DNA of 64,000 bases from Torpedo marmorata (lineage: Eukaryota). The notes below the pieces were generated by a model, which had not been told where the DNA came from, searched no databases, and worked only from the letters and a program-made list of their open reading frames with translations. Each line of letters starts with the position of its first letter. The stretch's first letter is position 1. Of this stretch, positions 2,078-26,200 are shown one piece after another. The position numbers and the translations under genes were made by a program. Where the stretch lies: positions 28,520,001-28,584,000 of the forward strand of contig OZ360242.1 of NCBI GenBank assembly GCA_977017645.1. The letters run 5' to 3'.

Positions 2078-2286
2078 ATGGCTTGGTTTGAGTCACAGGA
2101 TATGTTAGTAGGTATGAGGACAAGATTGCTCGATCCAATACTGGGCAGAAGAAGAAGTAATTTAGTCTGGAACCAGTCAGCATAGTCTGTGGCATTAAAT
2201 GCTGGAAACTGGGCTTCTAACTGTTGCATGATCCTATTCAGCATCACATTCCTTATAGCTGTGTTTTGAATAACTTGAATATCCAT
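2078..2286 (-). CDS. exon 32: [69 protein letters not shown](M/I)
   Basis: ttttatttcAG / GTGAGT, 209 nt, phase 0->2; no later exon found in 1-2077, so the gene probably continues past the window start. Confidence 0.88.
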
Positions 2287-5200
2287 CTGAAATAAAATAA
2301 AATTGCATGAATCATTTTGAAAATTGGCAGTATATTTTTAATTTAATAATAAATCAATTTCAAAGATTTTTATTCAGTTTTTCATCTGTTTAAAAATAAG
2401 GGGGTTTAAATGACTTTTGTCCTTGACTGAAATGACCAAACAATATTTTTGACTAAGAAACTGTATCTACCTCAAAATGCACATTACGTTGGTAACATGG
2501 GGACATTTTGAGGTGTATAAAATTATGAAGGGTAAGAATTTTATTTATTTTTTCAAATTTAGACATACAGCATAGTTAGTAACAGGCCCTTCCAGCCCAC
2601 ATGACCATGCAGCCCAAATACCCCAATTAACCTACAGTTCCCGTACATTTTGAAAGGTGGGAGGAAATCAGAGCAACCGGAGGAAACCCATGCAGACATG
2701 GGGAGAATGTACAAACTCTTTACAGATTCGAACCCGATTTGCTGGCACTGTAATAGCATTGTGCTAACCATTACGCTAACCGTGCTACCCCAATAGATAG
2801 ACAGGGTACATTGCGGGAAACTTTCTCCCTTTATCAGAGGTTAGGAAACATGAAGGGCATAGATTTAGGGTAAGAGATGATACCAGAGAGTGACAGGTAC
2901 CTGTAATTCACTGTTGGAGAAAGCAATGGAAGTAGAGTCACTGACAGCAATTAAGTAGTATTTAGAGGATAATTGCCAAGGCTTTGAAGGCTATGGGCCA
3001 AGTATGGGATGAGATCAATATGGATGTGTGTTCACTGTTCTGCTTTAACATGGTGGGCTGAATGACCTGTTTCCAAGCCAAGCGACTCTAATACATGGTG
3101 GCAAGGGCTAACATGTTCGATATGTATGGTAATGCTGCTACGTTCAATTGTCAATGAGCCCCAAAGTATCAAATTCAGTAGAATCAGCCATTCACATTTT
3201 GTGTGAACAAAGATCCTTCCTCTGCATCTCAGCCATTTAGGAAATCTGGTTGGTCATGGTCACAACTTGTGGTGAAGAGAGGCCCACAAAAAGGTCCATG
3301 ATCCCTGGAGGGTTATGGAATGGGTGCAGGTCAGTGGGACTAGCGGTATGATGTTTTCGACACAGACTAGAAGGGCTGAATGGCCTGTTTCTGTGCTGTA
3401 GTGTTCTATGGTTCTATCTATTACTTTGGTCAACAAAATGCTAAAGGTATTGGGGAGTTATGACAACCTCAACAGATTTATACTTGTCTGTGGGAAGGAA
3501 ACTTGCGTGTCTCTAATCCCATGTTAGCATTTAATGCTTAACAACCCTCTCAGAAGGCCAAGTATTTGAAAGGCTGTTATACAGGGCTGCAAGTGATGGA
3601 CATAAAATGCTGAAGCATAGTTGCAACGTTCACATTTCAAGAAAAGAATAATCAGTTCGCTGATTTACCTTTTGTGTGTTGATGACAAACTCGTTCATGT
3701 ATTCCTTCAATCCACTGAAGTTTCTGCCAGCAATTGCATCAAGGATTTCATTGATGTTATTAATGTTGTTCAAAGAGCTTACAGTTAGCTCAGATAGATG
3801 TTTTGGATTGAGTACGTCCAGAGCGTCAAACTATGGAAATATGAAGTTGATAAAGTAACATCATTGGTGAAATGAGAACGGGAGGGCAAGACCTCCAATC
3901 AGTATTTTATTTATTACATAGCTATGCTAACCCAACAAAAGGCATTGCTTCACCCAGAAACTATGCATGTTTAGTTTCATGAGTGTAATTATAATTATTT
4001 TGTATGATGTGGAAAGTGTTGCATAGTTCCATTGGGAACTGTCATTGATGGAAAAATGCAGACAAGCCGCTGCATTATGGTGGAGGGGCAGCGAGATTGT
4101 GCTCCTAGAAAACAGGCTGTGATTTCTGTGATGTGAATATGTGTCATCTGCACGTGCATCAAGAAACGAAAATTGAAGAAAAGTACATCGTGTGAGATTT
4201 ATTTAGTATTTATCCCTTCACAAATTTAACAAGAATGAATTTTATCTCAAATTTTTGTGTAATGATTTGCAAATTCTGTAAAGGCAAATTTCCGAAACTT
4301 GAATGTTTGAAATGTGGGAGTCACCTATACAACAATTGGAAGATATTTTATGACCGAGTACAAAAAGACCGAGGGATATCGATCACTCTACATCTCATGC
4401 AGTACATCTCTGCTCTGCCTTCCTCTAATTTGGAATTTTTGTCACATGATGATTTTAATATCACATCCTAAGAATTTGGATATATTACATGTCAAGCAAC
4501 TCTGTAACACAATTTTCATCAGTAAATTATAAATTGGATTGATAAAAGAGCCAAAAAGAGGGCTTAGATTTGTGACATTGTATTTTGTGAAGTACAATAA
4601 GCTTTAAATGACATTAGTTTCCCAAAAATAACTTACTCCATTGAAATTGGAATTTAGGCTGGCAAAGTCCTCTATGTTAACAAGATATCGGAACATTCCC
4701 CAATTTGTCAGCAGCCAGTCTCTTGATCCATTTGTGTTGCTGATACATCCTGCACCTGTAGTTAAAGAGCCACAAAGAAAGGGTTAGTTTTGTAACACTG
4801 TAAAGCACTTTGTGAAGTTAAAGAGTAAATGTCAGCTATTTAGATATGATATATTGCAGTGAATAATCAGGAACATTTGATATTTACACAATAAGAAACG
4901 TTCTTTTGAGCTCTCAGAGCAATGGAAGCTCAGTAATCTATCTTATTCAAAATTGGGATGGATAGATTTTTGGACATTATAGAAAGCAAGGTATAGGGAT
5001 ATTGCAGAAACAAGAGGAGCTGACAGTCTGTTCTTATTTCTTGTGTTCTTTATAACAGTTATGTTTGCGCTCCTGGTTCAATCAAAATGAGAATATCTTC
5101 TATCAACTGCAAACATGATTGAGCAGATCATAGGGCTAACCTTCTAAGAAATGTTGCTAGATAGTTTTCCATGAATTATCTCACAGGAAACATTATTGTA

Positions 5201-8200
5201 GATGCGACCTTTTTTCCATGGGAATAAATGGGGAGAATTGCCAGCCAATATGGTTGGAAGACGTACAATGCCATTGTAGATACAATGAAGCTGTGAACTA
5301 ACATTTTTGAAACTAGCCTGTTCTCGTGATTTCATTTAAATCCTCAAGGTTTTTACATGACAATTGCAGATATGGTTTTGACACTAACAAATTACATCAG
5401 TTTCTGAAATGAATGTCAAAATGCATTGTGCCAGGGCAGGAGAACTTGTTATCAATAGTCCTAATAAGCAAATATAGTTTTCTTTATAACTGAAGGAGCA
5501 AAGGAAAGTGGGGAAGATAAGCAGAGACAAAAACAACAAAGGATCCATGGAGGAATGATATTCTGAGATAAGTTAGTTGATGGAGCGAAACACGAAAGTC
5601 TGCAGACGCTGTAATTGTAGTCAAAACACAGAAATTCTGGAGGAACTCAGCCAGTCTCACAGCGTCCATAGGAAGTAAAGATATATTACCGACATTTCGG
5701 GCCTGAGCCCTTCCTCAAGATGTGAGTGAAAATAGGCAAGAGTCTGAATTAAAGGCTAGGGAAAGAAAGCGGGGAGAATGGGAGGGGGAGGAGTACAGAC
5801 CAACAGACAAAAAGTTTTAATTGGATATGATAAGAGAAAAGGTGAGAATTGATTTTGGCTTTGTGGTGAAAAGAGACTGAGGGAAAATGGAAGAGAGAGA
5901 GGGAGACAGAGCTAGAGGAAAGGAGACGGGGGAAGAAGATGGGGGGGGGGGTGGTTAGTTGAAGCCAAGCTTAGGTTTAAAATGGCTGAAATAATTGGAA
6001 GGAATGAGGAGGTGTCAGTAGGATGAGCATTAGTTTCTTAAAAATAAGTTTGCTGGAAGAAAAGAAAACTTTGCAAGATATTATTATTGACTGCTGAAAA
6101 TATAAGAGTTAAATTCAGGAATTAAGTCTAATCAGGTGAAGAAAAAATTTACAAAGGAAGATCAGAGGTCAAAGATGAGCAAGAACCCACTGATAAAGTT
6201 TCAAACTTTTTATTGTTATCCTAGCCATTAATGTGATAGCAATTTGGAAGGGCCTCATCAAATATGGAAACAAGTATTTAGATTTAGAGTACCGCAGTTT
6301 TGGTTCACATCGAAAGCTATGTTAAAAAGAAATAGAGTAATATTAAAGAAGAAGCCAAATCCCTGAATCCATGGGGAATACCTTGGATTTCATGCTGTAA
6401 CTTCAGTGGCAGACTATTAGAATCATCAGTGAAACATCAAACATTGATTTACACTGGACCCCTATATTCCTGTCAAAGTTTCCCAGTTCTCTGACCAAAG
6501 TTATGCTCTGCACCTTCAGGACCTGAGCTTTGTGAAATTAACTTCAGCAATGGAGGAGTGTGATGCGATAGTGAGGTCTTATAAATAAAGAAGGTGCAAG
6601 TATTTAAGTGATTAGATTCAAAAGATACAAACAAATTCTGGAATAGAAATTTGTTCATGCCTACACTCATTAAACATGTGATTATGGTTTAACATGTGTA
6701 CAATGCACTATCTCCAGAACTTTTTACATTGAAGTGGGTAGATTAATTTCTACTCCTGCATCTTTGAAAAATTGGAAGGAAACTTAATCCGCTTCTAAAA
6801 TAAGATTAAAAGATATAAAACTATGTCTTAAAAACAAACAATTACCATTAAACTTTTCTGCAATATTACAACAACTAGATTTAAATCTCTCTGGCTTTTA
6901 ATTGCTTTTCTCCCTTACCTGTGGTGTTGAGGTAGCCAAGGACCCATACTTTTAATACTGTCTTTCTTGTTGCCTGTAGCATCTCTCCAAATACGTTATT
7001 GAGTCCTTTTAAGCTAATATAGAAACACATTTATTATTTATTAGATGGTTAGAACTATAATATCCATTCATTTAACGACAATAATTTTGGGATACTTCTT
7101 TAATTATGTTTTATAATCAGATGTGGTCTTTGTATATCCATATCAGAAGCCTGAATAAAGCATCCAATGCAATGAAACCTTTCAGCAATGAGCAAAATTC
7201 ATCCTATATGTCCCACTGCAAATCCAGTGTGACATTTAAGGCAAATTTAGGACTAGTGTCAGGCATTGTTGGCCCTGCTGCCTTGGGCAGATCAATGGTG
7301 TCACTGGGCCCTAAGCAGGCATTAGGCCTCATCTGCATCTAAAAATAGCAAAACGCCTGCTTCAGGCCGAGAGAGAGCAAACTTCACTTGTCCCAATACG
7401 TTGGGCCCTTAAGCAGCATCTTAAAAATGGGTTCAATGCATTTCAATTCTCAAATTTATAGGAACCAGTTTTAAACAGTCAGGCATCAATTCCTCTTCTA
7501 AAAATATGAAGCTAAAAGGAAGAATGTGATGAGGGAGTGTACCTCATTCTCCTCCACTGAGACCCAAGGCCTTTCTGATGAAAATGCTACAACAAGGCTG
7601 TGGTAAACCACTGTAAATACCTGTATATATGTTTATGGTCGTCTGGACACGCCCCTTACTGGCTGTACCTGTGGCTCCTCCCACAGACCCCTGAATAAAG
7701 GTTATTGTGCCACAGCTCCCTCCCCAGTTCAGCACAGACGACCACCAGGAATGTGCTTCCATTCCAATGTGAATAAAAGCCTATCAGTTCTTGCTTAACT
7801 TCTAGTCTTTCGGAGTTATTGATGGTGCATCAAAGGCTCTATTTATATTGTTAAAACATTTCTATAGATTGGTAATCTGCTCTACAAGTACACTCTACTG
7901 TACGCATACCTCTGCTAAAGGTCCAGACAGTTTCCAAAAGCAGGAGAGATGCATTAAAGAAGTAGTGCGTGTGGACAAACAAAGTGTAATTATTCAGGAT
8001 CTACTGCTCCTAAATTATACTTCACTTAAGACAGAATGGTAGGAGGCTTTGCATACTTAATGGAAGTAAATGCCTTCCCTCTTTATGATCTATTAATCTA
8101 GATAAAACAGATGTGTGTGTGTGACTGTGTGATTGTGTCTGTGACTGTGCATGTGTCTTGGAGATGCTTAAGGGAAATCCCCCACAAAAACTGTATTTCA

Positions 8201-11200
8201 CTAACAGTAAGCTTGTTTACCAGTCTACCTGAAGCTGGTTTCCAGGACTTCAACTTGCAGAATCAGGTCTATTTTTACTTCTATTGAAGCCCTCATGACA
8301 TATCCAATGAGGACCTACCTATAGTTCCTTACCTAGTATAAATCATTCACATAAAATGTCCAGACCAATTAAATTTCTGGCTTTTCAGTTGATCATGGAC
8401 AGCCAGCGCAATGATTTCAGCGATAAAAAGCATACTTTCAAACTTTTATACATTGTTATATCAGCTTATTGATTGTAAGCATCAAAGATCAACACACTAA
8501 GGATCACAGAGCCCGAGTTATCATCACCGTGAACAGGCTGCATCAGATAGTAAAAGTGAGTCACTCTCTTACACTGCTTGGTAACCCTCACAAGTTGTGT
8601 TTCGTATCAAGAGACAGTTCAGCACCGCTTGGGAGATGCCAGCATTGAATGGTCTGAAACGCTCCTGGAACCATTTTGTCAGGAAAGTCGGATTAATCAA
8701 GTTTTCATTGGTCTTCACAGTTTCCCACAGAGCATTCATAAATGTAATTTTTGACATCAATGGAATTGATGCTGTGTTCTGAGTCTGAAACAAACCATAG
8801 CACATGCTTAAAGACTGTTCAAGATCTTTCACTGCAAATGTAAGAAACGGTCCCATTTCAGAAGCAAAATCATTTTTATTTTTACGAGGTAAAAGTCAGG
8901 CAAATGTTAACAACAAAATTTGTCCTAATCTAAATTTCTTTTTCTCCAGAACAAGCTTAAAACCTGTAAAATGACAGTATTTTTAAAGGATCATTAGTTC
9001 AAAAGCAGTTAATCTTCAGGAGAGAACACTGAAATTTGACAAAAGCCAAAGTGTAGTTTTACTGATCTTCCTTAAAGCACTGGATTGTATACTCCTGACG
9101 GATTAGCTAACGGAAACATTAACTTTCTTTTCTTTTTTTACTCTCGAAGAAATATGAGGATTTGAAGAGAAATCTAACTTTATTATCTTTGATAGTCATT
9201 TATAGTTTATTGTCAGAACATTTGAAAAATCTTTTGCTGCTTAGGGACCAGTCTGCAAATGTCTAAATGTTTATATTGTTCATGCAAACATTTGTTTCAG
9301 TTGTTCAATGTTGGCTAACAAAAAGAACATCATCTTTCTATACACAGCCCTTAAATATCTAAAGTGCAAGACACATCTGATGCTCAGGTATTTTATGCCT
9401 GCAACCATATTAGTTAAATTTCTGTCAGGTGCTTACGCTAGCAAAGTATCTTATTTTCTGAATAATTATTTTTCAATAAATCTAATAATTCCAATATCAC
9501 CATGGTAAGTTATTCATACAAGCCATTTCACTCTCCAAATAGAAGCACTACATTTTACAAGTGGCAGATCTGGAATTTTATTTGCTTTTTTCAGTCATGC
9601 ATTAAGAATAATTAGTGTTGTCAATGTTACTTAGCATTCCTTCCCTAATCTAAAATACCACAAAACCTAGGTAACTCATTTTCCATATAATTGTTCTTTA
9701 CAGGATTTTCTGTGCAAAATGGTAACCATCTTTGATTACGGTAGCTGCACAAAGTAATTCTGCATCCTTTATGCAAAGTATAAATCAAGATATTTTAATC
9801 TTTACAAGTTAATTTTTACCTTGTTATTAAATTTATCCAGTGCCTCATTAAGGACTGTTTTGTCAAGCTTCTGAAGAAATATGCCCAGTGCAGTTTCATC
9901 TTGCCTCTGTAGAGCTCTCGTTGAAGTATAGCAATTAAATAAAGTCATCAGATAGTCACTGGTTAGATTTTCCAACAGATGATTATTCTACAAAGGAAAG
10001 CATTTGGAAATATGTGACAATAATACATTACAGTTTATTTGATCTAAAATACTACAAATAGTGGAACTTTCCTTTAATAAGTAAAATAATATTGAATCCA
10101 ATGTAAAAGAACATTTGATAATTTAATTGATAGGTATTCCAGTTGCCTAATTCCTCATGTTGAATAATTACAAAATAACATGGTAAAGTACCATAGCAAT
10201 TGAACTTTTAATTCCAATGTATCTCTCAGTATTGTATAAATTCTACAGCAAAGATCATTTTATTGTTTCTAGGTATTTGGTGCTCCCATTTTCAGTTCAT
10301 TTTCCATTTGTGTGGGACTGTCACTTTAAGAGAACAAATTTAACAAAACCCTGCAGGCTTTGGAGTTTGACTGTGAGCTGACAGACAGGTTGAGGACAGC
10401 GTGTTCCTAAATTGGATACATCTGAAGAGAAGTAGTGGCCCTGGAAAACCAAGGTGCAGAGACCATGTGACCAACAGATTCAAGACACAGTACACAGTTT
10501 GCTCAGGGGCCATTTTAAGGAAGCAGCACTTGAAGAAGCATCTTTTGAAGGGATGCTGTGCTGAAGGGCCTCGTGTGGTCATAGACAATTTGTCTATTTG
10601 AACTGCCTTTCGAGAATTGTGCCTGAGCTGTAGTGGCTTGGGTATTCCACACACACACACAAGTATATTCGCGCATAGTTGGGGGTTAAGTAGATAGTTT
10701 TAGATAAGTTTAGATAAGGTTAGATAAATTAGATAAAGTGTTATATTATTGGTAATTATGGGTATAATAAAAATATTATTTTAAATATAACACTGGGCTA
10801 ATTTCTATTGCTGCTGTCTGGTACAAAACACTAGGTCACAGTGAGTATGGTGTCTGGTGGGTAGATTCAATATTTATTACCACGATGACTGCCCTTGTTC
10901 GAGAGTGGAACCATAATTCACAGGGTAGAACTTTGTCCTCAGTTGCTTGTATTAAGCATGCAATGTAATTGCGATAGGACATTGTGCTGCGCTAACAAAT
11001 TCCACTTCATTAGTTTCGATGCACGTGAATTTCAGAAATGGTGTATAATAGTCATGATAAAATTTCCATTGAGATATCAACTGTCTCAACTTCACCACTC
11101 CCCTCTCTTATTCCAATCTCAGCTCCTCTAAATGCTTTGCCCTCCACTCTCTCTGCACAAATCCCAACCTCACTATCAAACCCATAGACAACGGTGGTGC

Positions 11201-14200
11201 TGTTGTGGTCAGGTGCACTTCCTTCTAACTTGCCGAGGCCGGACGACAGCTCTCAGACACCTCCTCTTACTTATTCCATGAAGAAGACCCCACTAAAAAC
11301 ATCAAGCCACCATCTCAAGTACTATCTCTAACCTCATCACTTCTGCTCATCTCCCTCCCACAGCCTCCAACCTCATTGTTTTCTATCCCCGCATTGCCCA
11401 GTTCTATCTCCTAACCAAGATACACAAACCCATTTATCCAGGCAGACCCATTGTTTCCGCATGCTCCTGCCCCACTGAACTTGTATCATCTTACTTCGAC
11501 TCCATTTTTTTCTCCCCTGGTCCAGTCCCTCTCTACCTAAATCCGCAATACCTCACATGCTCTCCATCTCTTCAATGACTTCCAATTCCCTGAATGTGAC
11601 AGACTCATTTTCACTATGGACCTCCAGTCTCTTTACACCTCCATCCCCCATACAGAAGGTCTCAAAACCCTTTGTTTCTTTCTTGACAAGAGACCAAACC
11701 AGAGATATCACATTTTCAGAGATAATGGGCTGGACTGTACCCATTCTGGTCACTGCCCAAGACTGTACCTACTCCCTTTGCTCCATTTACTTTATGTTCC
11801 CACATATCCAGTTGGCTTCAATTGTTTGCTACAATGTCTGTCCCACAAGGTGGAGCAGACTGTGAGCAGTGACTAGGCCTCAGGCAATGGCTTCGTCTCA
11901 GCAATATTAAAATTCTAAAATTCCTTTATTGTCATGTAATAATACAGAACATGTAATATTACACAAAATTGCCTTCTGCCTGCCGCAAGGCAAACAAAGA
12001 GTCGCCATTAGTGTTGCCCGGCGCCCCTTACAGTAAGAGAGAAAGAGAAGCAATAGAGTCCCTTCAGAGTCACTGAGTGTCTATGGATTCACCTCCAGCG
12101 CTTCCATAACCTCTGCAGTGACACAGACCCCTGATCGATTCATCGGCAACCCGAGCTCCAGATCCAAACCTCTGATACGATCAGGAAGTCTACAGCGCCC
12201 GAGGCCCTTCGGTAGCCCTTCCTGCCATCAGCACCCTCTTGTATCCCGATTCCGATACCTGGTTCCCATGAGCCAGTCTCCAGCAGTCCACAGCATGTGC
12301 GGGTCCCCCGAGTGCAAGTCGCCTGCAGCCCTCGTGGGTCCCTCAGCCACTGAGCCCCTCGCTGGTCCATTGCTGTGGTTACCTTCCCTGTTAGGTCGAC
12401 TCCTCTCTTCATTAATTCTCCGTGGCCACTGACGAGCACAGGCACCACCATCTTGGGCACAGACCACCGCGGTTGCAGGATTTTAAATAAAAACACCATC
12501 GGCTCCTTTAACAGACTGTTTAAAGCTTGTACGGAGCCGGTGTCATGAGGACCGGGCGGTTGAACCTCCTTGGAGCAGCGCTGTGTCTCCGCTCTCCTGC
12601 CAACAGCAGCGCTACCGTCACAGCAGCTCCGGCAGCGCCACCATTTTTTTTGAAGAGGATTTAAATAATTATAAAAATAATTGTCAAAAAATTTAAATAA
12701 AAACATAAAGAGAATGATTACTCTGTACCTATCCTTTCACTCAAGGCTTGCAGACCCATTCAAGCGCATAAGGTTATGTGAACTACACCCATCATCCCTG
12801 GCATAAAGCTACGTCCAGTGACAGGATGGTATATGTAACCTACAACTCATTCCTGACATCCACATTGCAATGTTATGAAAGGCAGAAGCAAGCTGGTCAC
12901 GTACTGCAGCTACCTGGAATTCTTTATGGAACAACCTATTGAGGAGCACCATGACGCAGCCAATTAGAAATGTGTAATTTCTCTATAATATCTGGTTTCA
13001 AATGCTCAGGCATTTGTATTGCTTATTCCTTAATTCTACAAGATGTAGGGATACAAACTGTTGCAAAAATGACTGATTCGACCGACCCCCAGTGAAGTCT
13101 GAGGACAGTTTGATTTTCTGAAATGTCATTATATTTCAGTGTAATAAAGATATTATTTTTCTAACATCATTCTTGGCGAGGAACAATAGCAGCCTAACTG
13201 ATGCTTTCACAACATTGCTTCTCATATAAAATTCTGGATAATGACAGAACTTACCTGAGTGCACGCGTAGTCTGTAATGTTGAAATCGCAGAGGTGGGAC
13301 CCATTAACAGACATCAAGAAATCATTCACAGCAGAACTGTCATAGATAGGATAAGAAGTGGGAATGAGGATGGGAAATTAATACTCCAGGAAAGAAGTTA
13401 ATATTGGGATTTAATACAAATCAACACAATCTTAGCTTTATTTGTTTGTCTTTAATCACCATGTTGCAAGACTTTACTGAGGTATGATTGAAGGAAACGT
13501 GCTTGGGCTGAGGTAGAAAAGTCATGTAAATCAGGAAGGACCCAAGTCGGAATCTGCCGATATCAAACCAATTCAGGTTGTTGATGCACGATGCACCACA
13601 ACTCAGCAAGGAAAAAATAATACCCCTGACTACTGACTAAACTACCGTATATTTCGTCGTATAAGTCGAATCTTGAAACCCTCAAAAAGCACTCAAAATT
13701 CAGGGGTCGACTTGTATGCCAGATACAAAAATGAGACCTTAAATTCAACTCAAAAAACCGCTCGACATAGATTCGGAGTATAAGACGACCCGAAACACCA
13801 AAAAAGAACCCAACCTTCATACTTTCATCGTTATGCTGGAGGCTCCATGATAACAACCACCTTCCAGCAACGCCCAACAGCTCAGTCAATGCGATTTTTG
13901 GGGGGTCGACTTATATGCCCGATATATGATAAAACCATGAAAATGAGGCTGAAAATGGGGACCCGACTTATCTGAAGGTCGACTTATACGCCAAAATATA
14001 CGGTATATTGGTTTCATCCACAAGTAGGCATGGGATTCTACAAATTATCAAGGTCAGGATAAGACACAGCTGCAATTCCCCACCCAGATGAATGTCCTCT
14101 TGACTTTCTATACCTCTACCACAATCTGCTCCCTTTTGGTTAAGATATTGAAAAGCACAAAGACAAGTTGGAATATGAAAAAAAATAAAATCAGGGAAGC

Positions 14201-17200
14201 ATCATTTAAGATTTCTACTCAAGGCCACGATTTGATCACACAATTCCTGTGGGAAGGCACAGGAACAAGTCAATAATTTCAGAGAATAAAATGTTGACTG
14301 GCTTCAATACTTACCTATTTGCAGCTGCACAGAACGCTGTTTCTGTTTGGTGTAGAAGAAAGAGTATTAATAAACATATTGAAATAAATGTTAATTATAT
14401 GTTATGAAAATTGAAAAAAACTTACCATTATATGTGTTGTTGCCACACTAAAAGGGGAAAAAAGCATAAAGTTTAATAATTTTAATTGTCTTGTTCCAAA
14501 CTATATATTAAATAGATATTAGGAAATATATAGACTGTAAGGGATTTTGTATATAAAGTAAAACCCCTGTTATCCAGAATTCAAGCAACTGGCAACCTCA
14601 AGCAATCAGCAAAAATTTAAAAAAATAAAATAAAATAAATAAATAAAAATTAAAATAAATAAGAATAAATAAAGATTTAAATAAAAGTTTAAAATTGTAA
14701 AAGTAAATGTTCTCTGAAGTAACACATAAACCTTTGGTGAAGATAGGAGCAAATATTCAGCCAGCGGAGTGCCTTGGTTGTGCTTTGCTCATAGCAGCTG
14801 TTTGAATAAAGTTGTGTGAAACAGCAATGGCGTCACCCAGGATGAAGAGCTGGTTGATGCCGCTCGCCATTGGGGTGACTCTCTTAAAGTGTCTCCTTAT
14901 CTCTGCTTAGTAAGAGTCTTTATCTTTATTAGTATATTAGTAAGTATATTAGTAAGGCTTTATCTGTAAACTTGGGGGAGGGTGGGGTTAAATATCTATA
15001 ATGTTATTGTTCATCTTTCGGGTGGCTCTGTGGAGGGGGAGGAACCTGCAGATACAGCGACGGTTAAATGTTTTCAAAGAAAGTGACTGAAAATAAAATA
15101 AAATAATTTAAGGTTTATATATTCATGCAAGTGAAATTTGTTCAGTGTAAGTACAGTATCGTATTTTTGTCTTTGAAACTGTTTATTCTTAATGCAGGTA
15201 TTAGTTAGGCATTGTAAGAGTGAGTCTCAAGCAACCGGAAAACTCGCTTCTCCGGCATCTACCAATCCCCACGGGTGCTGGATACCAGGGATTTTACTGT
15301 ATCTGTAACAAATACACAGTCCAAATACACACTAACTTTGTTAATTTATACACAACACATAACACAGGCATAATACCACAATGAATAAGATATTACGATT
15401 ACAAAAATACCCTATACCAACTGATCCATAAAAGACGATTATTTTTGCAATTTCACAGATCACATTGAAAACATTCATACCAAGCAAATAATTACAATAA
15501 TTAAAACAACTGCAACTACTATTTTGTTCCCCCCCTCCCAACTAAAACAGGCAGAGAGAAAAGATATCCCACTTTACGGCATGTAAATGCAGATGACTTT
15601 GGACAGCGTGATATTCCATAAATGATTACCCATCTAATGTCACATGTGGACTTGACATAGCATTGTGAATTTCCCAGCTGGACAGCATGAAAGGAAATGG
15701 AGGGATATGTATCATGTGCAAGCAGAAGAGTTTAGTTTGATTTGGACATCATGTTCAGCATTGAAGGGCCTGATCCTGCGCTGTATGTCCTAAATGAGAA
15801 TAACACTCTTCCGATAAAGGTACATTTGCAGTGTGAAGCCTGGGAGCACAGGAGCTGACTCTTGCTCTTTGATTCTGACTTCTCATGCTGCCTGTCTGGA
15901 GTTTATACATTCATCCTTGGCTTTCCCTTAGGTACTTTTGTTTTCTCTCAAATCCCAAAGGCATCCTGGTTGGAGGGTAATTGGTTACTGTCCGTATTCC
16001 TGAGTGTAGGTGGTTGGTGGATAGGGGAGGGGTATAAATGGGCATGTGAGAGAGAATAGATTACATGGAAATAAGTGGGCAAATGGGGTTGTTCTGAGAG
16101 CAGAAAAGATTTGTTGGGAAAAATGGCCTCCAATGTCATGATGAAAACTACAAACTATTGAAATACATCTACAATCCATTCTCTTAATTTGTCAGGTTGG
16201 GTGTCAAGAGTACAATTTTGCTGTATAAGAAAGTTTCAAAGGGACATATGTGATGAATTTTTATAAAAGTGTCATGATAATGAAAGAAACACCATTTCCA
16301 TCTTACCATGAAATTAGGTTGGGGTCCTGAAAAGAAAATAAATATATTATTAATGGATATACTTTAGATGTTGATATGCTCGACAACAGCTTTGCTTTTG
16401 CTTTCATGTATTTCTGAACCAAACTATTATGTTGTGACACACATGATGCAACAGATTAAAGGGAATGTCTTGTAAGGTGCCGTAACATATATAGGAAGCC
16501 ATCTTTTCATATTCCTTTCCTCTAGTGGTTTAGGTTCAGAAATATTTTAACCTCAAATGTACACCTTAACCTCTAACATGGAGACACGAGAGACTAGATG
16601 CTGGAATATGGAGCAAAAAATAAACTGCTGGAGGAACTCAAGCATGGAGGCAAAAAGATGTTAGACTTTTCAGGTCATGACTGCATCAGGACCGAGTGTG
16701 TAAAGGGGAGATAGCCAGTGTAAAGGGGAGATAGCAGGGTGTAAAGAGGAGGAATGATGGCAAGCAATAGATGGATCCAGGTGAGGAGGGGTGGTGGGCA
16801 GATGGAACCAGATGGGGAGGCTAGGTTGTAGACTTTGACAGTGTCTGGGAGGTGCTAAGTGCAGACAACATAGGGCAGCAGATAATGGAATCTGATAAGA
16901 AAGAAAGGTGACGAGTGAAACCAGATGATGGATGATGGGCAGATGGGAATAGTTTGAGGGGATAGGGGACCCAGTGGGTTGTGTGTGTGGGTGATAAGTA
17001 GATGAATGGAGGGGAAGGGAGCTGGGAAACAGGAGGTTGGGGGAGGGGGTTTTGGAGGAAGGGTATGTGAGAGATGACCAGGGTGGATCAGGAGAGAGAA
17101 AGAAACAGAAGGGTTTCAAGTTACCTGAAATTTGAATATTCACACCATTAGGATGTAGAGTGCCCAGCTGGAACACAAAGTGCAGTTCCCAGTCTGCTGA

Positions 17201-20200
17201 ATTCCCCCAGCAGCTTGAGTTTACTCTTTGACACTCTGGTCATTGGCACATATACCTTCCAACATAGGTCTTGAAATTGGAGTTAGAGCACCCAAAACCT
17301 GCTCATCACAATATGCAACAAGTGTGACTTTCTTGAATGCTCTCTATCTTCTGCTTTGTGTTTTTGGTTTGCTTTTTTTATTGTGCAGTTAACACAGCAT
17401 TTGTGAGGAGAGGAAATTTCTTTCAAGGGCAAATATAACAAGGTTCCAATATTGTGTTAATATTTGTGATAAGTTTTCATGCAGAACAAATATTTGAAAT
17501 CCACTGTCATATACATTAAATGATGTATCTAGAATTTTTAATGATGTGAAAATAGAACCAAAACATGATGAAATGTTATCTTTGCTTACATATTGTTGTC
17601 TTATTTTACATAATGCCATTAACAGAATTGCTCAATGATGTTTTTCTATAATTAGGGCACATACCTGATGTAGGATCTGGAATTCCTCCAATCAACCCAA
17701 CCTTCTTGACTTCAGATTCAAAGTGAGAGTTTACCCATGCTAACACTACAGTTTCATTGGCTCCAGTTTGAAGAGCAGGAAGGTTAATTCCAAGCAAGCT
17801 TTTCAACTGATTGGCAGTAAGTTTCTAAAATCAGAAAAAGCATTTGAAAAATTAACTCTTTCATATTTTAGTTCAGAGAGAAACCCTTTACATACCTGCA
17901 CAATTTGTTACAATCCACAAGTTACAGAGTCATCATTATGGATCTGCATTTTATAATTTATGTATTTAATTTCATGAGTTTGAATTCTTTGTATGATAAG
18001 ATTGGATTCAAGTTCTTGGCTCCAGATCAATTGTCCAGATATTAATCTCATATCTAATCAATAATGCAATCATCTAAAGACGAAACTGAGACTCCATATC
18101 ACATATCAAACTATAACCATATTGCAATATCTACATACCACCACTTCTTCAGGATTCAGACTTGTAAATGTTGCAAAGTCCATGTTGATACTATTATTTG
18201 CAAATTCTCTCAGATCATTTACATTAGCACCACCTTAATTAAATGAGAAAAAGTTAGAGGTTTGCTATCTGTACATATTCATTTACACATATTTATAATC
18301 TTTATTAGAAATATTTATTCATTCATACAATTTGTCTTCAGCTGTTCATAACACCACAGATTTCCTCAATAGAATTATTGCAACATTAACTGATATAGAT
18401 GCTTGATTTAAAAAAGGTAGTCTAGAAATTGTTCATATTTTTACTCCCTCTAAAGCAGCATTGTTTAATACTTTAACAATGTTTTAAAAAAGTCCAAGAA
18501 ATATTGTTATCTTCCATTGTGAGATTCCCTGTATATACAGTACTGTTGATCTCCTTGACTATGGAGTTTGATTACCTCCTTCATTCAGGGATGAGCAGCA
18601 AATTCTACTCTGTCACCTCAAATAACTTCTCACCCCCAATTATCTCTGATCAATTCCCCTGCACCTACCATCAATTCTCTACACAATGAATATGCTCCCA
18701 ACCATGACCGACAGCCACTGCACTCTCCTCCTAAACCACAGTCTAAACACGTATGTCGTCTCTCCTAGTTCCAGTTTGCCATCACCCATTTCCAACATTG
18801 AGGTGGTAATATATTTAACAAGATGGCAATAGATTGCTGTCTTTGTGTGAGGTTCAATCGTGTATGACATCTTGGGCTTCATGCATAATAGTCTTTTGCT
18901 GCTGCTGCTCTTCAGTCAAGATTGGCACCACCTTAATGGTTAGAAACATTATAATATAAAGCCTATTGAATCTTAACACTCTTACAATGTTACAAACCCC
19001 TCACAGACAATGCCTTGGTTTTGGTGTGCAGCAGCTAATTTATGCAGAAAGAGCCTATGTATATTCATGCAATGAAATTGGTAGTGCTGGTCATGACACA
19101 AACGTTGGCTGGGGCCAGGGGAATCTTTCATGGGCTTTTTAAGGAAATTTTGAACAGAAGATCCATGCATTGGTTTACTTTTGCATCTTAAGGAGGAAGC
19201 TCCAACAGTACAGTCAATACAGTCAGCCCAAGTAATGCACTGAAGCAACAGCCTCACAGTGAGAGAAAACAATAATTCACCATCCCCTCCATCTTGCCCT
19301 AAAAGTCCAAGACTAAATTTGTCAATCACCCAAGATGGTTAGCTATTTATTTCCAAACTCAATGAAGGTCTTTTTCAAATATGGTCATCCGCAAGAGTCA
19401 AGAAACATACCAAGGAAAGGCTTTATCAGACTGAAGTAGGCAATGGTGTTATTTGGCTGTGATGCTAATTCATTCCGTGCGAGAGTGTAAAGCAGGCTCT
19501 TCTTTGACTGAGTGCACGAGGAGATATCCAGAGTCCCAGCTCTCCTGTGAATAATAGAGAAAATTGTAATTTTGAAAGACATATTCATTGGTATCATTTC
19601 GAACAATGCCTTTCTACTCTACACAGTTACATTTACACAATTAACCCATCTTAACTGTCAATTCTGGTATCTCCACAGCCTCCCCTACTCCCACCATGAA
19701 CCTGTAGATCAGCAGCCGGCTAAAGGCAGCCGCAGTAAAGTGGTGTCTGGAGTTCCTTTACATCTGGACACAATTATGATTAAATAGTATTTGACCTGAA
19801 GTATCCAGCACTGCATAAGATCATTTGATAGCGTTAAATTAATAGGAAGTGAAAAATATAGCACTTACATCAAGTCTGAAATGGTCATGAGTTGGCTCTC
19901 ATTCAGGATACACAAGTTTGATCCACCAATAGCTTTCAACGAAACTGCATTGAGAGTTCCACCACTCTGGAGATATTTTGTAATGATGGCTTTAACCTGA
20001 AAAATAATGCATAAATTATTGAACTAAATTTAGCAAATACATGTGACAAAATGCTCTTCTCTCCCCGAGGATCCTGCTTTCATTTTCACCCTGTTCTCCA
20101 CCCCTGTTCGTCTCCCTATTTAATATATATTTTAATCCACTGGTACTTTATTTAGAACGTCTACTTCAATACGACTCTTTCACGTTACTTCCACATAACG

Positions 20201-23200
20201 ATACAAGTTCCCGACAATTTTTAATACTATTTTCCTTCTCTGTATTTGAGCCATCCCATGCTACATCTGTGATTGCTAATCCTTGTCATGGTAAATTACA
20301 TCCCATCACTGGGAACCCCACTCGATCTAATGCCCAAGAGGAAATGAGAGTTTAAAAATAACTCATTGTGTCTCTCCCTTTCATAAGTTTGCACACAGCC
20401 TTGCCTATAACTTGCATTCTTCATAGAACAGCATATTCACAAGACTTGCACCAGAACAGTTCTGATAAAAGGTCTCAGTGCTGATATTGTAACCATGTAC
20501 CACCTCACACAGATAATGCCTGCCCTGCTAGATTTTCAGACTTTTCGAGCACTTTCTGTTTTATAATCAAATTTCCATCATCTGCAATTACTTTTGATTC
20601 TCAAACTTTCCATTAAGGCTTTGCAAGAGCTTTGTTTCTTGCATGACAATGTTACTACATTTTTACGGCAATGTCAAACACTCCAACAGGCCACTGAAAT
20701 AGATTTGGGCTTCTATGCATATTATTGGCACTCTGATTTACATGTTCGGGCAGTAATAATCTAAGAAAATAATTGCGTTAGGTTGTAGGTATTTAAAGCT
20801 CTTGAAAGGTCTCAAGGAATTGGATTCTAAATTCACGCAAGACAATGTCTACATATTCTTAATTTAAAACTATCCTGCTTTTGATACCGTTGTGTTTTCC
20901 AGTCCTTGTGCCATTAATGCAGAAAGTGTTTCAATTTCCGTGATATTCCAGCTGCTGACTTCTGTCACATTGAACACAGTGGATATGTTCCCGAGCAACT
21001 GAATCTGGTTTTCCGGTAAGCCATTGGGGTATATCTGCTTCAAGAACATCCAAGTTAGTAAAATTCATCATTCAATGAGGTTTTATCCTTATCAGTTCAT
21101 TACACTTGTATTCCAAAATAAACGTTGCAGACTGGTCTTCACAATGGTGGACTATGCCCTCTGATCAGTAATATTACTAGAGTGATACAGCATTCTATCA
21201 TGCTTTTCAATGGACCTGAAAAAGTTGTACTTCTTCAAATAAGATTATAACACCAAATGATTTGGGCTGGTTAACTCGGGCGCACATGAAGAGTTAGTGC
21301 TGAAAAACAAGATAAAATCCCTTGTTTGCCTATCAGACTGAAATATCAATGTGAAGTCCATGTAGTTTCTATAAAGTATGGTACACCATATTAAGATGAC
21401 CATGAAGCTTAAGAAGTCTGTAAATCTGTGCCACACAAGCGAGAGAAGACAGGAAAATGTCCTATACAACAGAGGTCAAAAACCTGAATTTATGTTGCAC
21501 TTTTCTGACAGAACTGTGCCCCAGTGAGATGAATATTAGATGGGTTCTCCTACAGTTTTAAAAAAAAACCCACCAGATTGTTGCTCAAGCCACATGAAAA
21601 TGCACCCATTCTTGCAATATGGATTGATTCCAAGCAATCCTCCCGACACATTACATTTTTGAGGAATATTTTTAATTGTTGCTTTCAATTCAAAATCATT
21701 CATCAGACAAATGATAATCCTGATGTTACAAAATAATTTCAAAATGGTAAAGTAAGGATATAACAGTACGCTGTGGGTTGTAGGAGGATCTATCACTCAC
21801 CAGATGGAGTTTGTTTTTCAGAACTTCAAGCTGATCAGTGTCAAAGTCAAGAGCTCCCAGTGTCTCCACATCGTCTTTTAACACGTTGTCACTCAAGCAA
21901 GCCTCCAACTGTGCTGGATCGTACCTCACCGGGGTCAGCTCATCAATGCTTCCTGCTGTTAATTGTCCAACAGTACAGTCTGCAAGGATAAGTTTCATGT
22001 GATTGATAAACTCCGTATTCTCAAAATATATAAAAAAGTGTTGTTTTATGTGATATTTGTGGACTATTTACATAGTTACTTACAGTACTCCTTAATATAA
22101 AGTTTTATTGAGTGTAAAATAATAGGACGATTCCATTGGTTAAAAAGTACAAAAGAATTACAAAGAGAGCAGGAAACAAATGCAAAAGGGATGACCCAAA
22201 AAATTGCGTAGATTTACAGAAAAAGAAAGAAAAAAATGTCAACAATTGAAATGATCACTGGGACTGTGATGTTCAAATATTCCTCAGCCAATTGTGCTAA
22301 TTTCAGTGAATTTGTTTTTTTTAGCAGAAACTCCTTTTAATTGTCCAGCTAGTAACTTACTAGATTTTTCTCCATGAATATAAAAAAGACTTCTACTTCT
22401 TAAAAATTGTTGTTCAATTCGATAGGTAGAGAGAAGATCAAATTTAGTTTTAAGTTCTACTCTTCTCTTATAAAAATCCAGATTTATCGCTCTCCGACAG
22501 TGTAGAGAATTTAAAGGTATAACTAGATGTGGAATTGAACATAAAGTATCTCTTTATGCAGATGATTTATTGTTTTTTATTTCAAACCCTGAGGTCTCTA
22601 TACCAAATATATTAATTTGTTTACTCAATTTAGCCAATTTTCGGGTTATAAATTCAATTTACATAAGAGTGAATTATTACCCTTAAGAGGACCTCTTGTT
22701 AGCTATTCCAATTTCCCATTTAAAATAGTGAATGATCAATTCCAATATTTAGGAATTACAATTACAAAAAGTTACAAAAATTTAGTGAAAGAGAATTTCT
22801 CGGTTCTACTCAATAAGATTAAACCACTATTATCGGGTTGGTCATCCTTATCTATTACAATGATGGGTCGTATCAATTAGATTAAAATGAATATTTTGCC
22901 TACATTTCTGTATCTTTTCCAAGCTTTACCAATTTTTACTCCTAAAGCCTTTTTTAGTTCATTAGATTCGGTCATTTCTTCTTACATATGGCAGGGAAAA
23001 CCACCACGTATAAATAAAGCCCATCTTCAAAAAAATTAAAAGGAACGGAGGGTTATCACTTCCAGATTTTAGATTTTATTATTGGGTGATTAATATTCAT
23101 AATTTGCTTTTATTATTTCATTTTGATATCACTAACAGCTAGTAGAGCCACTGTTCATCAATATTTTCTCAGTTATGTGGCCAGGAGAGAACATGGAGCC

Positions 23201-26200
23201 TTTGGCTAGTTACATTGGCTGATCTCCACAGAATAAGCGATAACCAATATTATTTATTTCAGGCACTTCAAATTTTACAAGATCATAAATTTATGATGGC
23301 AGTTTAGTATTTTTGAAATAGTTATTTACAAAAATGGGATGGAATATTAATGCACGTGTACTCCAGTTGTAGCTTATCAGTAAAATTTAAATCCCAAGTT
23401 TATACTCTTAGTGTTTAGAATTGTATTGCAAATTTGACTGACCACACGAAATGTCTCATCCAAGATGCTAACTCAAATGTACACATGCTGATATAGGCCC
23501 CAATGTCCATTTGACCCAGACTAACTTATTCAATCATAAAAAAAACAATTTCTCCATGATTTCTTCATTCTCTCTTCAGTAAAATTTCTAAGGATTTCCC
23601 CCCTCTAATGAAAGGCAATTCAAGTAGCTACGTAGTGGTTCTATTCACAAGCACAAATTACACCCAGATGGAACTTTAATTCTTTTTCTTCCCCAATTGA
23701 TGATATCTCTGTACAGACAGTTGTGCTTTATATAGTAAAACCCCCGATATCTGGCACCTATGGGGATTGGTAGATGCTGGATAAGTGAATTTGCCGGTTG
23801 CTTGAGATTGCGCGTTGCGTGATTGGTGAATTTAGCACTGGGGGCACCAATTTTAAATTTCGTATTTTTTAACCTATTTATTTTCTGTGATTTTTTTGCC
23901 AGTTGCTTGAGGCTGCCGGTTGCTTGAATTCTGGATAATGGGGATTTTACTGTATTGGTTATCTTGTATTTTCACTGATTACGTACCTACTGCGCGTGTG
24001 AATCTTCTATGTTTTCGAAGCTGCTTAATAAACTTTACAACATCACTTGGTGGTCTAGACTTTCTTATTTTCCTGATAAATGTTGGGAGGGCTGCATTAA
24101 AAACAAACTGCAGGATACAAAACAGAAGTATAGTTAGTAAATGATTAATTAAATGCTTTGCTGTTTAGCAAAAAGATATTTTGAAAAACTCATACAATCT
24201 TAAAGTCATAAAACTTATACAAACATAAACCCAATAAATATTTTTTAGTTACCTAATTCTCTTCTGAACTCTAAAATTGAAGCTTCTATTACCTCCCCTG
24301 GCAATGCATTTCATAGACCATAAGACAAAGGAGCTGAATTGCGCCATTCAGCCCATCAAGTCTGCCGGCTATTTGAATCATGGCTGATGTAATTTTACTC
24401 AACCCCATTCTCTTGCCTTCTCCCCATAACCTCTGACACCCTTACTAATCAAGAACGTATCAACCTCCGCTTTAAATATACCCAATGACTTGGCCTCCAC
24501 AGCCATCTGTGGTAACGAATTCCACAGATGGCAACAAACTCTATACAACCTAAACAACTTGCTGTGTGAAAAAATGCCCTTGTGTCACTTTTGGTTATTT
24601 TGTCAATCACTTTCAATCTATTTCTACTAGTTCTTTCGCTCTCTGCCAACACAAACAGCATTTCCTTATCCTCTTGGTTTATCCCGGTCTTAAATGTCAA
24701 TATCAGATCTCCTTGCAACCTCTTCTCTTCCAAGGATAACAACTCCAGCTTTTCCAGTCTATCTAAATGACTGAAGTTCCTTGCATCTGGAATCATTTTG
24801 GTAAAGTTCTGTGCACTTTCCAAAGCCATTATCCCTTTCCTACAGCAGGACACCCAGTATTGGATGCATTACCCTACTCATGGCTAAACCATATTTTAGA
24901 AAAGTTCATCTTGATTTCCTTGCTCTCATATTCCTGTTTATAAAGCCCAGGATCTCATATGCTAACAATCTGCTACTCTTCTTTCAGCAAGCTATGCGCA
25001 TACCTCCTCCACATCTCTGTTCTTGAACCCCTTTTAGGATTATGCCCTTTAGTTTACATTGCTGGTTCTCAAAGTTAAGAACATTATTGATTTAAATATT
25101 GGTAGAATATCAACATTCTAAAGCAGTTACTGCAAAACTGCATGACTTTTTAATAAATGTAGAAAGAAGACAGGTGTGCAGGTGATTTTGGATACAGGAT
25201 TTTAATAGTCCATATTTTATAAACCCTCAAGTCTATACTTACATTTAAATTACATAATCACTTACTGTTCTCAATCACCGTATAACGAACAATAGTTGTT
25301 CAATTAAGTTGAAAATAAATCTAATGGTGATTCTAGGATTTTACATAAAGGAACAAATTTGCTGCTAGATTATGAATTTTAAATTATGGATATTAAATAA
25401 AATTTTACTCAATTTGATTTATGATGTAGAAATATTTCAAATAATTTAAAATGGACACAAAATGCAAAATGGCTTTTCATGTGTATTCAATGCTTTGATT
25501 AAATAAAGTTGAAACATTTGCAATTATGCAGTTTTCAGTATTTTTACAATTGACAGTTAAATTTGGGGAAAAAAAATCCATAGAGAATTAATCAAGGTTT
25601 CACAATAACAAGGGTTAGTGGTCTCATACATTTAACTTCACATATGTTGGTACATAATTATTTAAACAGTACCTGATTCACTTGCTGCCAGGTTGAGGTT
25701 AAAGCCAAAGGAAGATTACCGAGATCATTCACTGTATTGGTCGACCATAAATCAGGTGAACTATGAGACAAGCACACAACTTGATTAGTAAAGGAATTGT
25801 TGCACACGGCAGTTTCCATTTCATGTTTTAGTAGATTTTTTCACAATAAAAGCTAGTTCCTGAAAATAACATTAGTTCCTTCAGATTGATTCAGTTGTTA
25901 AGTTTCTCTGGAGTTATAGGTGAAGCATAAAGGAAAGTGGAAAAAAAAATTAACCTGCAAGTATAAAAGCCATTGTGGTATGCAGTTGGAGAATGTGGCA
26001 GTGCATTTGTTGCTTTCAACTGCATCCAATAAACACGACTCTGTTTCATTCATCTTCATTAGTTGAATTAAATTGTCACTGATTGGGTTTGGAAACATGG
26101 ACTCCTTCATTGGAAAGAAGAGGTAGCTATGTCCATTTCATAATTTCTTTTAAAGGTAACGATGGAATACCAAAATTTGAAAGTTGAAATGTTGACTCTA

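Follow-up and report, generated by a model that had tools for sequence, protein, structure and literature searches.

A predicted giant mesothelin-family gene with seven tandem mesothelin domains in Torpedo marmorata

Mesothelin is a human cancer marker and a major immunotherapy target whose normal role is poorly understood. Otoancorin and stereocilin contain one mesothelin-like region each. Human mesothelin is reported to be furin-processed, glycosylphosphatidylinositol (GPI)-anchored and folded as a right-handed solenoid (PMC10035497), and otoancorin and stereocilin are described as GPI-anchored mesothelin relatives with long N-terminal extensions that have been proposed to tie matrix to the cell surface (PMC2628672). 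Here, we analyze a window of 64,000 nucleotides from the Torpedo marmorata genome (assembly GCA_977017645.1, contig OZ360242.1:28,520,001-28,584,000) that encodes, on its - strand, a mesothelin-like domain from which the reading frame runs on into further modules. We conclude, with a probability of roughly 0.7, that this window belongs to a single 261-exon gene with an 11,296-codon frame and seven mesothelin domains, the product of which is predicted to be a GPI-anchored precursor with furin-type cuts likely at two sites only. Like the human MSLN precursor (PF06060; PDB 7ued and 8cx3), the predicted protein has an MPF-like region, a basic site, a mature domain with four conserved cysteines, and a hydrophobic tail, and its last cycle has the layout of the human precursor; an orthologue, P0003, matches 7ued at an E value of 6e-39. 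The differences are considerable. Human MSLN has 622 amino acids and one domain, compared to 11,296 amino acids, seven domains and 27 extra modules here, and, unlike in human MSLN, five domains lack a cleavage site and tryptophan W321 is not conserved.

The gene was sought in the window together with 200 kb below and 400 kb above it, a 664-kb region without any N in which all 211 tblastn clusters were on the - strand. The full model, built cycle by cycle by spliced alignment, extends from 28,921,976 to 28,452,711 of OZ360242.1 (- strand; 469,266 bp) and contains 261 exons totaling 33,891 nt, with AG at all acceptors and 258 GT and 2 GC donors. It encodes a protein of 11,296 amino acids (1.26 MDa, 306 N-glycosylation sequons) with a single stop at the end. 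Seven poorly matching exons inserted by the aligner near the N-terminus and one after domain 1 were omitted when the model was joined, and the orthologues support both omissions. One module close to the N-terminus has no fourth exon: none was found when it was looked for, and the frame is unbroken in its absence, as it is in an orthologue. The seven mature domains begin at residues 2132, 3745, 5192, 6638, 8085, 9523 (the domain in the window) and 10972, and a search of the 6.2-Gb genome with one domain exon returned seven copies at the locus and one distant paralog. Three single exons of the locus score 31.3-35.7 bits against the Pfam Mesothelin model (PF06060; cut-off 25.8). One of these is in the window, where the match at 26339-26545 scores 32.6 bits and confirms the suspected family membership. 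Eight of nine scanned orthologues also match PF06060, with 1-4 stretches each, and P0004 covers no domain.

Both ends of the gene lie outside the window. An orthologue N-terminus located a signal-like exon (17 of 22 residues identical) that is conserved in orthologues; two guesses made ab initio were dropped once it had been pinpointed. A search of the adjacent DNA for a further mesothelin domain and the true terminus brought the total to seven domains and ended at a hydrophobic GPI-like tail exon (OZ360242.1:28,452,811-28,452,711, - strand), 67 kb past the low end of the window. The mean hydropathy over 19 residues of this exon is 1.86, compared to 1.93 for one internal stretch of domain 7. 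The signal-like and tail exons have one strong match each in the 664 kb, and AATAAA or ATTAAA signals are found behind the last exon, from 225 bases past the stop. The original prediction was that the gene encodes at least two iterations of helical repeats, an MPF-like region, a furin site and a mesothelin domain. Its tandem part stands, with seven repeated cycles in one frame; its furin site is present before domains 6 and 7 only.

Within the window (positions without a contig name refer to it), every one of the 17 exons between 24107 and 2078 is bounded by an AG acceptor and a GT donor, and together they form an in-phase, stop-free chain of 693 amino acids. The domain, the micro-exons behind it and a cysteine-containing exon thus share one frame, as had been read from the sequence. 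Spliced alignment with a bamboo shark protein as the sole template recovered identical window exons, including three micro-exons of 20, 22 and 28 nt, although this check is not fully independent because the splice-site matrices of the custom aligner were trained on hand-picked window exons. The earlier numbering of 32 exons is reproduced when a partial exon at 64000-63934 is counted. Sequons number 21 in the 693 amino acids and 34 in 1,317 amino acids counted from exon 60551, compared to about 30 in the earlier hand count.

The exons, all on the - strand, are as follows. Exon 1 (63934..64000), which is partial and starts at 64089 in the neighboring stretch, is the last exon of a helical module. 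Exons 2-4 (60551-60352, 55927-55839 and 55163-55033; phases 0-2, 2-1 and 1-0) encode one helical module of ~197 amino acids, identified by spliced alignment and the module profile. Exons 5-9 (52361-52237, 51327-51189, 50202-49990, 46530-46360 and 46165-46028), identified by spliced alignment, encode helical sequence that connects the modules to the MPF-like part; the orthologous region is modeled as all-helical. The MPF-like region of cycle 6 is encoded by exons 10-15 (35425-35376, 32780-32660, 31331-31246, 28258-28129, 26533-26343 and 25760-25673; spliced alignment and Pfam match). Exon 16 (23987..24107) encodes a basic stretch ending in RKHRRFTR, a furin-type site predicted from its motif (residues 9512-9519 of the full model). 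Exons 17-22 (21979-21801, 21034-20888, 19996-19869, 19544-19411, 18233-18139 and 17824-17665) encode the mature mesothelin-like domain, the sixth of seven. The linker behind it consists of three micro-exons recovered by the aligner, namely exon 23 (16307..16326; 20 nt, phase 1-0), exon 24 (14426..14447; 22 nt, phase 0-1) and exon 25 (14315..14342; 28 nt, phase 1-2), the last of which includes a cysteine. Exon 26 (13255..13336), placed by the AG/GT chain, has two cysteines and opens every cycle, including the first cycle behind the signal-like exon. Exon 27 (9820..9987; AG/GT chain and aligner) is the first helical exon of cycle 7, and exons 28-32 (8784-8573, 7013-6919, 4755-4637, 3830-3669 and 2286-2078; AG/GT chain, aligner and profile) encode helical modules of that cycle, from which the frame runs past the window to domain 7 and the tail exon.

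The claim that exons 28-32 repeat exons 1-4 was borne out in both phase and sequence. Their phases (0-2, 2-1, 1-0, 0-0 and 0-2) follow the four-exon cycle of exons 1-4, and the sequence likeness is weak but real (26/121 identical; none of 1000 shuffles reached the score of 67). A closer counterpart is found outside the window, after domain 5 (170/334 identical). We also found no convincing terminal exon behind domain 6, in agreement with the first reading. Reading through the donor at 17665 yields a hydrophilic peptide of 19 amino acids, and a hidden GPI exon was rejected, as 17664-13337 contains two weak hydrophobic terminal-exon candidates compared to 0.65 expected from the gene's own introns, which is near the chance rate.

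The domains of this protein share their cysteines and differ in their cleavage sites. Four cysteines are invariant in 7/7 domains, and three of them align with human cysteines in an alignment that begins after the first cysteine. The cysteine pairs of human mature mesothelin are given as 302/326 and 442/468 (PMC10035497). At the level of the motif, R-x-x-R precedes domain 6 (RKHRRFTR) and domain 7 (RRSKR), and none of domains 1-5 has a furin-type site (0/5); a sequon is found in its place. The same pattern was observed across 12 chondrichthyan models, this one and 11 others: R-x-x-R occurs before 12/12 penultimate and 10/12 last domains and before 0/24 internal domains, and an N-glycan sequon occupies the cleavage position in 24/24 internal domains and in none of the 24 penultimate and last ones, in a tally restricted to domains whose start is in the model and in which internal domains are not independent of each other. 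Furin-type sites precede only the last two domains, and therefore at most three pieces are predicted. The idea of a glycoprotein processed into several subunits is retained in this reduced form, with two predicted sites and, before domains 1-5, a sequon where a site would be.

Spliced sequences from relatives are consistent with one frame crossing from cycle to cycle. Of the runs that a search listed, none is recorded as RNA and none is nearly identical to this genome, which says nothing about expression. Two runs from one study, X1 and X2, whose RNA status was guessed, contained 5% of the words of 13000-22000, and their contigs were compared over 13150-18350. Run X1 has the joints 17824-18139, 14448-17664 and 13338-14426, with one contig each. 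These most likely come from a single 3,750-nt contig (record 8), because one depth value (358.4) is common to all three. Micro-exons 23 and 25 agree with the sequence inserted at the last two joints in 17/18 and 21/26 letters, compared to 12 and 14 at the best other place, and micro-exon 24 was aligned directly. The contig differs from exon 22 at 20 of 161 bases, suggesting that it is from a related species. In this one run, then, the spliced path sought for 17665->16326->14447->14342->13336 is present in a relative, joining the domain, the three micro-exons and the cysteine exon. Run X2, from the tally of which 38 joint rows at repeats were excluded, has only the first joint (18139-17824, seen in contigs of both runs). 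In addition, two contigs of ~10.5 kb, which cluster with skate proteins, encode 3,067 amino acids that begin at the signal-like start, include domain 1 and reach into cycle 2, a stretch that covers about 150 kb in this genome.

These contigs bear on the possibility that separate mesothelin-like genes are arrayed in tandem at the locus. The annotations would suggest such an array, as the NCBI models of Leucoraja, Rhinoraja, Chiloscyllium and Hypanus are split, and the linker behind each domain is the element that opens the gene. However, the split points vary between species, the gap between the last exon of an internal domain and the next exon is just 0.3-1.3 kb, and the signal-like and tail exons each occur singly in the 664 kb. 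The spliced contigs cross domain 6 and domain 1, where separate genes are largely refuted. We consider an array to be very improbable. The more specific proposal of a separate paralog starting after exon 22 was rejected in view of the spliced contig together with the single signal-like and tail exons.

Several observations weigh against a single gene with the ends, cuts and function proposed here. The signal-peptide-like and GPI-like labels come from hydrophobicity and conservation. The longest contigs are partial, spanning less than the whole gene; they come from other species, their RNA status is guessed, and both runs belong to one study. The X2 contig ends exactly at the domain-6 donor, and read-through past domain 6 is for this reason not shown by that run. 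NCBI annotates the locus as four models in Leucoraja, three in Rhinoraja, and two each in Chiloscyllium and Hypanus. P0027 (contig-derived and skate-like) and P0186 (a catshark model) end after the same exon of cycle 2, the equivalent of 28,770,440-28,770,316, possibly as a short secreted isoform or by chance. The domain-6 site in this species is a minimal R-x-x-R, and the absence of sites from 24 internal domains may represent one event because those domains share ancestry. Finally, the residue aligned to W321, the center of the human CA-125/MUC16-binding surface (PMC10035497), is not Trp in any of the seven domains or in P0003. This speaks against a simple MUC16 analogy, and the protein may still bind a fish mucin.

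Some of these points could be explained if the gene is real and its main products are shorter, with intronic polyadenylation or intron retention yielding secreted proteins of ~3,100-3,250 amino acids or membrane forms ending after internal domains. The common end point of P0027 and P0186 and the stop of the X2 contig would fit such products, as would a 43-amino-acid hydrophobic tail generated by intron read-through after domains 2-4. Yet the shared ending of P0027 and P0186 starts with residues encoded by the donor consensus itself, other orthologue models run past both short-form end points, and all 261 exons have been kept open, recent copies included. Hydrophobic read-through occurs at 10/256 donors of this gene, and the three cases after domains 2-4 are copies of one sequence. 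We therefore regard shorter main products as unlikely and favor a full-length product with seven domains. The read-through tails, from donors 28,741,529, 28,693,453 and 28,645,380, are in their own right candidates for an alternative membrane anchor.

The count of seven depends on recent copies. Domains 2-5 sit in 48-kb tandem units that are ~98% identical including introns and 99.3-99.5% identical in coding sequence. Assembly error among these four units might have inflated the count from a true five or six domains, and the 4-6 domains in models from relatives, like the near identity of the units, could be read in this way. The region is gap-free, however, and every unit carries private differences in which synonymous changes are in excess; two haplotypes would account for two copies, not four; and sharks and skates show recent copies of their own of the same domain class. 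We consider such an error improbable. All 35 exons are intact in each of the three extra units, and unit pairs have 20-30 coding differences with a synonymous excess, the most distant pair showing 19 synonymous and 11 non-synonymous differences over 1,007 and 3,334 sites, respectively (p = 3e-6). The units arose by recent tandem duplication, remain intact and are subject to purifying selection. The four near-identical units (OZ360242.1:28,593,000-28,749,300) are a likely site of copy-number variation between individuals.

Much of the protein consists of a helical module. A profile derived from modules of this protein detects 27 copies, each of ~197 amino acids, compared to 8-19 in five shark models, and gives 11 hits in zebrafish, 9 in medaka and 19 in axolotl. 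No Pfam family matched the module in a Pfam scan of P0004, and a homologue search with the first module exon returned nothing among 5 candidates. When the module profile was compared with the mature domain and with the MPF-like region, neither match was significant (probability 2.1 and 0.4, respectively); two higher scores arose from overlapping or neighboring segments. The predicted structure of a 952-amino-acid skate stretch, which runs from modules as far as the MPF-like part, is helical throughout (pLDDT 80.7, pTM 0.52, 15 sequences). For this model, Foldseek returned only HEAT-type proteins, with TM below 0.2, and the fold matches overall were to general HEAT-like or designed repeats. The best VIA-align match (Z 9.2, root-mean-square deviation [rmsd] 13.2, 285 aligned) and the match to mesothelin itself (7u9j; Z 8.4, rmsd 3.9, 113 aligned) are in the range of common helical arrangements, and a partial fold likeness of the modeled module region to mesothelin is suggestive only. 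In a 254-amino-acid model of the junction (pLDDT 64.5 overall), the linker scores below 50 and the following module is helical; Foldseek found nothing for this model at E 0.001 or better. Among module-rich relatives (P0100, P0028 and P0029) we observed a 5,048-amino-acid Metynnis model with 55 module hits and no mesothelin domain and a 7,139-amino-acid protein with 31 modules and one domain.

Mesothelins are a known family, and automatic annotations of sharks, skates and a chimaera already contain the architecture in latent form; no description of it was found among the papers listed in literature searches. Read-through with the same linker occurs in NCBI models from Chiloscyllium, Mobula, Rhinoraja, Rhincodon, Heptranchias, Scyliorhinus, Stegostoma, Hemiscyllium, Amblyraja, Leucoraja, Hypanus and the chimaera Callorhinchus. 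The number of domains per model is 4 in Rhincodon, Heptranchias and Hypanus, 5 in Stegostoma, Hemiscyllium and Amblyraja, 6 in S. canicula and 2 in Callorhinchus. These chondrichthyan models are labeled uncharacterized, hypothetical or mesothelin(-like), and most are split or incomplete. Four of them, XP_059510198.1 (Stegostoma, 7,881 amino acids), XP_032896963.1 (Amblyraja, 7,628), XP_038675521.1 (Scyliorhinus canicula, 7,331) and XP_060696376.1 (Hemiscyllium, 6,678), are true orthologues that share cycles, linkers and the cleavage-site pattern with the Torpedo marmorata gene, although they are automatic predictions without an N-terminus and have 5-6 domains compared to 7 here. Compared with four ray and skate models, the 693-amino-acid region shows 74-77% identity. 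Whether the architecture had already been described for orthologues thus has a divided answer: it is present in automatic cartilaginous-fish models, and neither the module nor the cleavage pattern nor an arrangement of mesothelin domains in tandem was found described among the papers listed in searches that covered subscription journals thinly.

A search with the module region returned 323 representatives at E 0.001 or better. Among 148 new representatives examined, 81 have no full domain, 60 have one, 5 have two and 2 have three. Of 20 that were looked up, 17 carried species names, all cartilaginous fishes, teleosts or amphibians, in a test that did not extend to amniotes. A search of the Atlas with the linker and module region placed otoancorin clusters at 0.88, a lead only, and no Stereocilin or Otoancorin Pfam match was found in the nine orthologues scanned with a Pfam copy whose inclusion of Otoancorin_N was unchecked. 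The giant models of zebrafish (mslnb, 3,931 amino acids), medaka (4,704) and axolotl (6,351) have a signal-like start, module arrays, a mesothelin domain and a hydrophobic tail, as here, with one to four domains compared to seven. The internal copy in medaka also lacks a basic site, and axolotl keeps a basic site before its last two domains. In trees, domain classes group across species, with the domains of this locus falling with those of rays and skates. Chondrichthyan last domains form one group and internal domains another, and the penultimate domains fall between them without resolution. The internal class has been duplicated separately in several lineages, sharks and skates having recent copies of their own. 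The extra domains of axolotl and teleosts group by species in a quick tree (two near-identical domains of this gene left out, midpoint root, no clade test), and so their multiplication looks independent. In published studies, the catshark orthologue (P0008) is listed in a sperm proteome table (PMC11083954), salmon mslna is named as one of the genes with high levels in skin infested by lice (PMC12339338), a gill table includes a salmon gene that was mapped to MSLNL (PMC7316992), and mslnl is in a medaka table of a DSS-injury study (PMC8573258); the giant form is not implied in the salmon and medaka cases.

The surroundings of the gene can be compared with the human MSLN/MSLNL locus. A gene with an Fe_hyd_lg_C domain (28,336,000-28,398,000) and a PseudoU_synth_2 exon (29,064,400) flank it on OZ360242.1 and share its strand; a further Fe_hyd_lg_C gene lies on another contig (C53). 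These neighbors may be NARFL/CIAO3 and RPUSD1, and by human gene order their orientation would correspond to that of MSLNL rather than MSLN. Nothing on the MSLN/MSLNL gene order with NARFL/CIAO3 and RPUSD1 was found among the papers listed in a literature search. The distant paralog is compact, with six exons encoding one mature domain in 5 kb (OZ360242.1:31,914,300-31,919,250, - strand), 3 Mb off; no MPF-like or module exons were detected within 200 kb of it, and its start and tail exons were not found. The introns of the giant gene contain interspersed repeats (window 29900-28650, 44400-41150, 41000-40200 and 14545-15306). These comprise probable reverse-transcriptase (LINE-like) fragments and a probable Tc1-like transposase fragment, judging by the appearance of their translations, and one element of 760 bp that has 13 copies in the 664 kb and is very deep in both runs. 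Short intronic tandem arrays with a 50-bp period are found at 1209-1358 and 61151-61447.

We propose that the gene is expressed as a single full-length 34-kb message encoding a GPI-anchored precursor that would be cut by furin-type proteases at two sites. The predicted pieces are one of ~9,497 amino acids with domains 1-5, which might be shed, one of 1,449 amino acids led by domain 6, and a membrane piece of 328 amino acids that would be the equivalent of mammalian mature mesothelin. The protein may form an extended alpha-solenoid with flexible micro-exon linkers. By analogy with mesothelin, otoancorin and stereocilin, its most likely role would be that of a long, multivalent and heavily N-glycosylated tether, which would bind matrix or mucin-type glycoproteins on the surface of epithelia. 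The intron phases offer a route to its repetitive structure. Phase 1 is found both at the end of the signal-like exon, behind which comes the same micro-exon linker as behind internal domains (one of the three micro-exons that follow domain 1), and at the start of the tail exon. Because the introns behind the signal exon and before the tail exon are both phase 1, tandem copies of the gene body can arise in frame, as a cassette that excludes both ends. Unequal crossing-over could later have added the three 48-kb units.

At 261 exons and 11,296 amino acids, this gene would rank among the largest in vertebrates, both in number of exons and in length of product; titin, for comparison, has about 363 exons. 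The cartilaginous-fish annotations examined split the gene or give it incomplete, which has concealed its full size. It provides a clean case of whole-gene-body duplication as a phase-1 cassette, which seems recurrent in rays, sharks, axolotl and teleosts. We tentatively speculate, at somewhat less than even odds, that a giant mesothelin was ancestral in jawed vertebrates and that the mammalian form corresponds to its last cycle, while the chondrichthyan protein would be a multivalent 1.2-MDa cable, cut at two conserved sites, that leaves an ordinary mesothelin on the membrane and sheds a helical rod of ~9,500 amino acids in which five glycan-sealed, uncleavable domains cross-link mucins, its length being tuned by 48-kb expansions. 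The seven domains, the conserved release pattern and the 27 uncatalogued modules point to an original role for mesothelin as a long extracellular tether.

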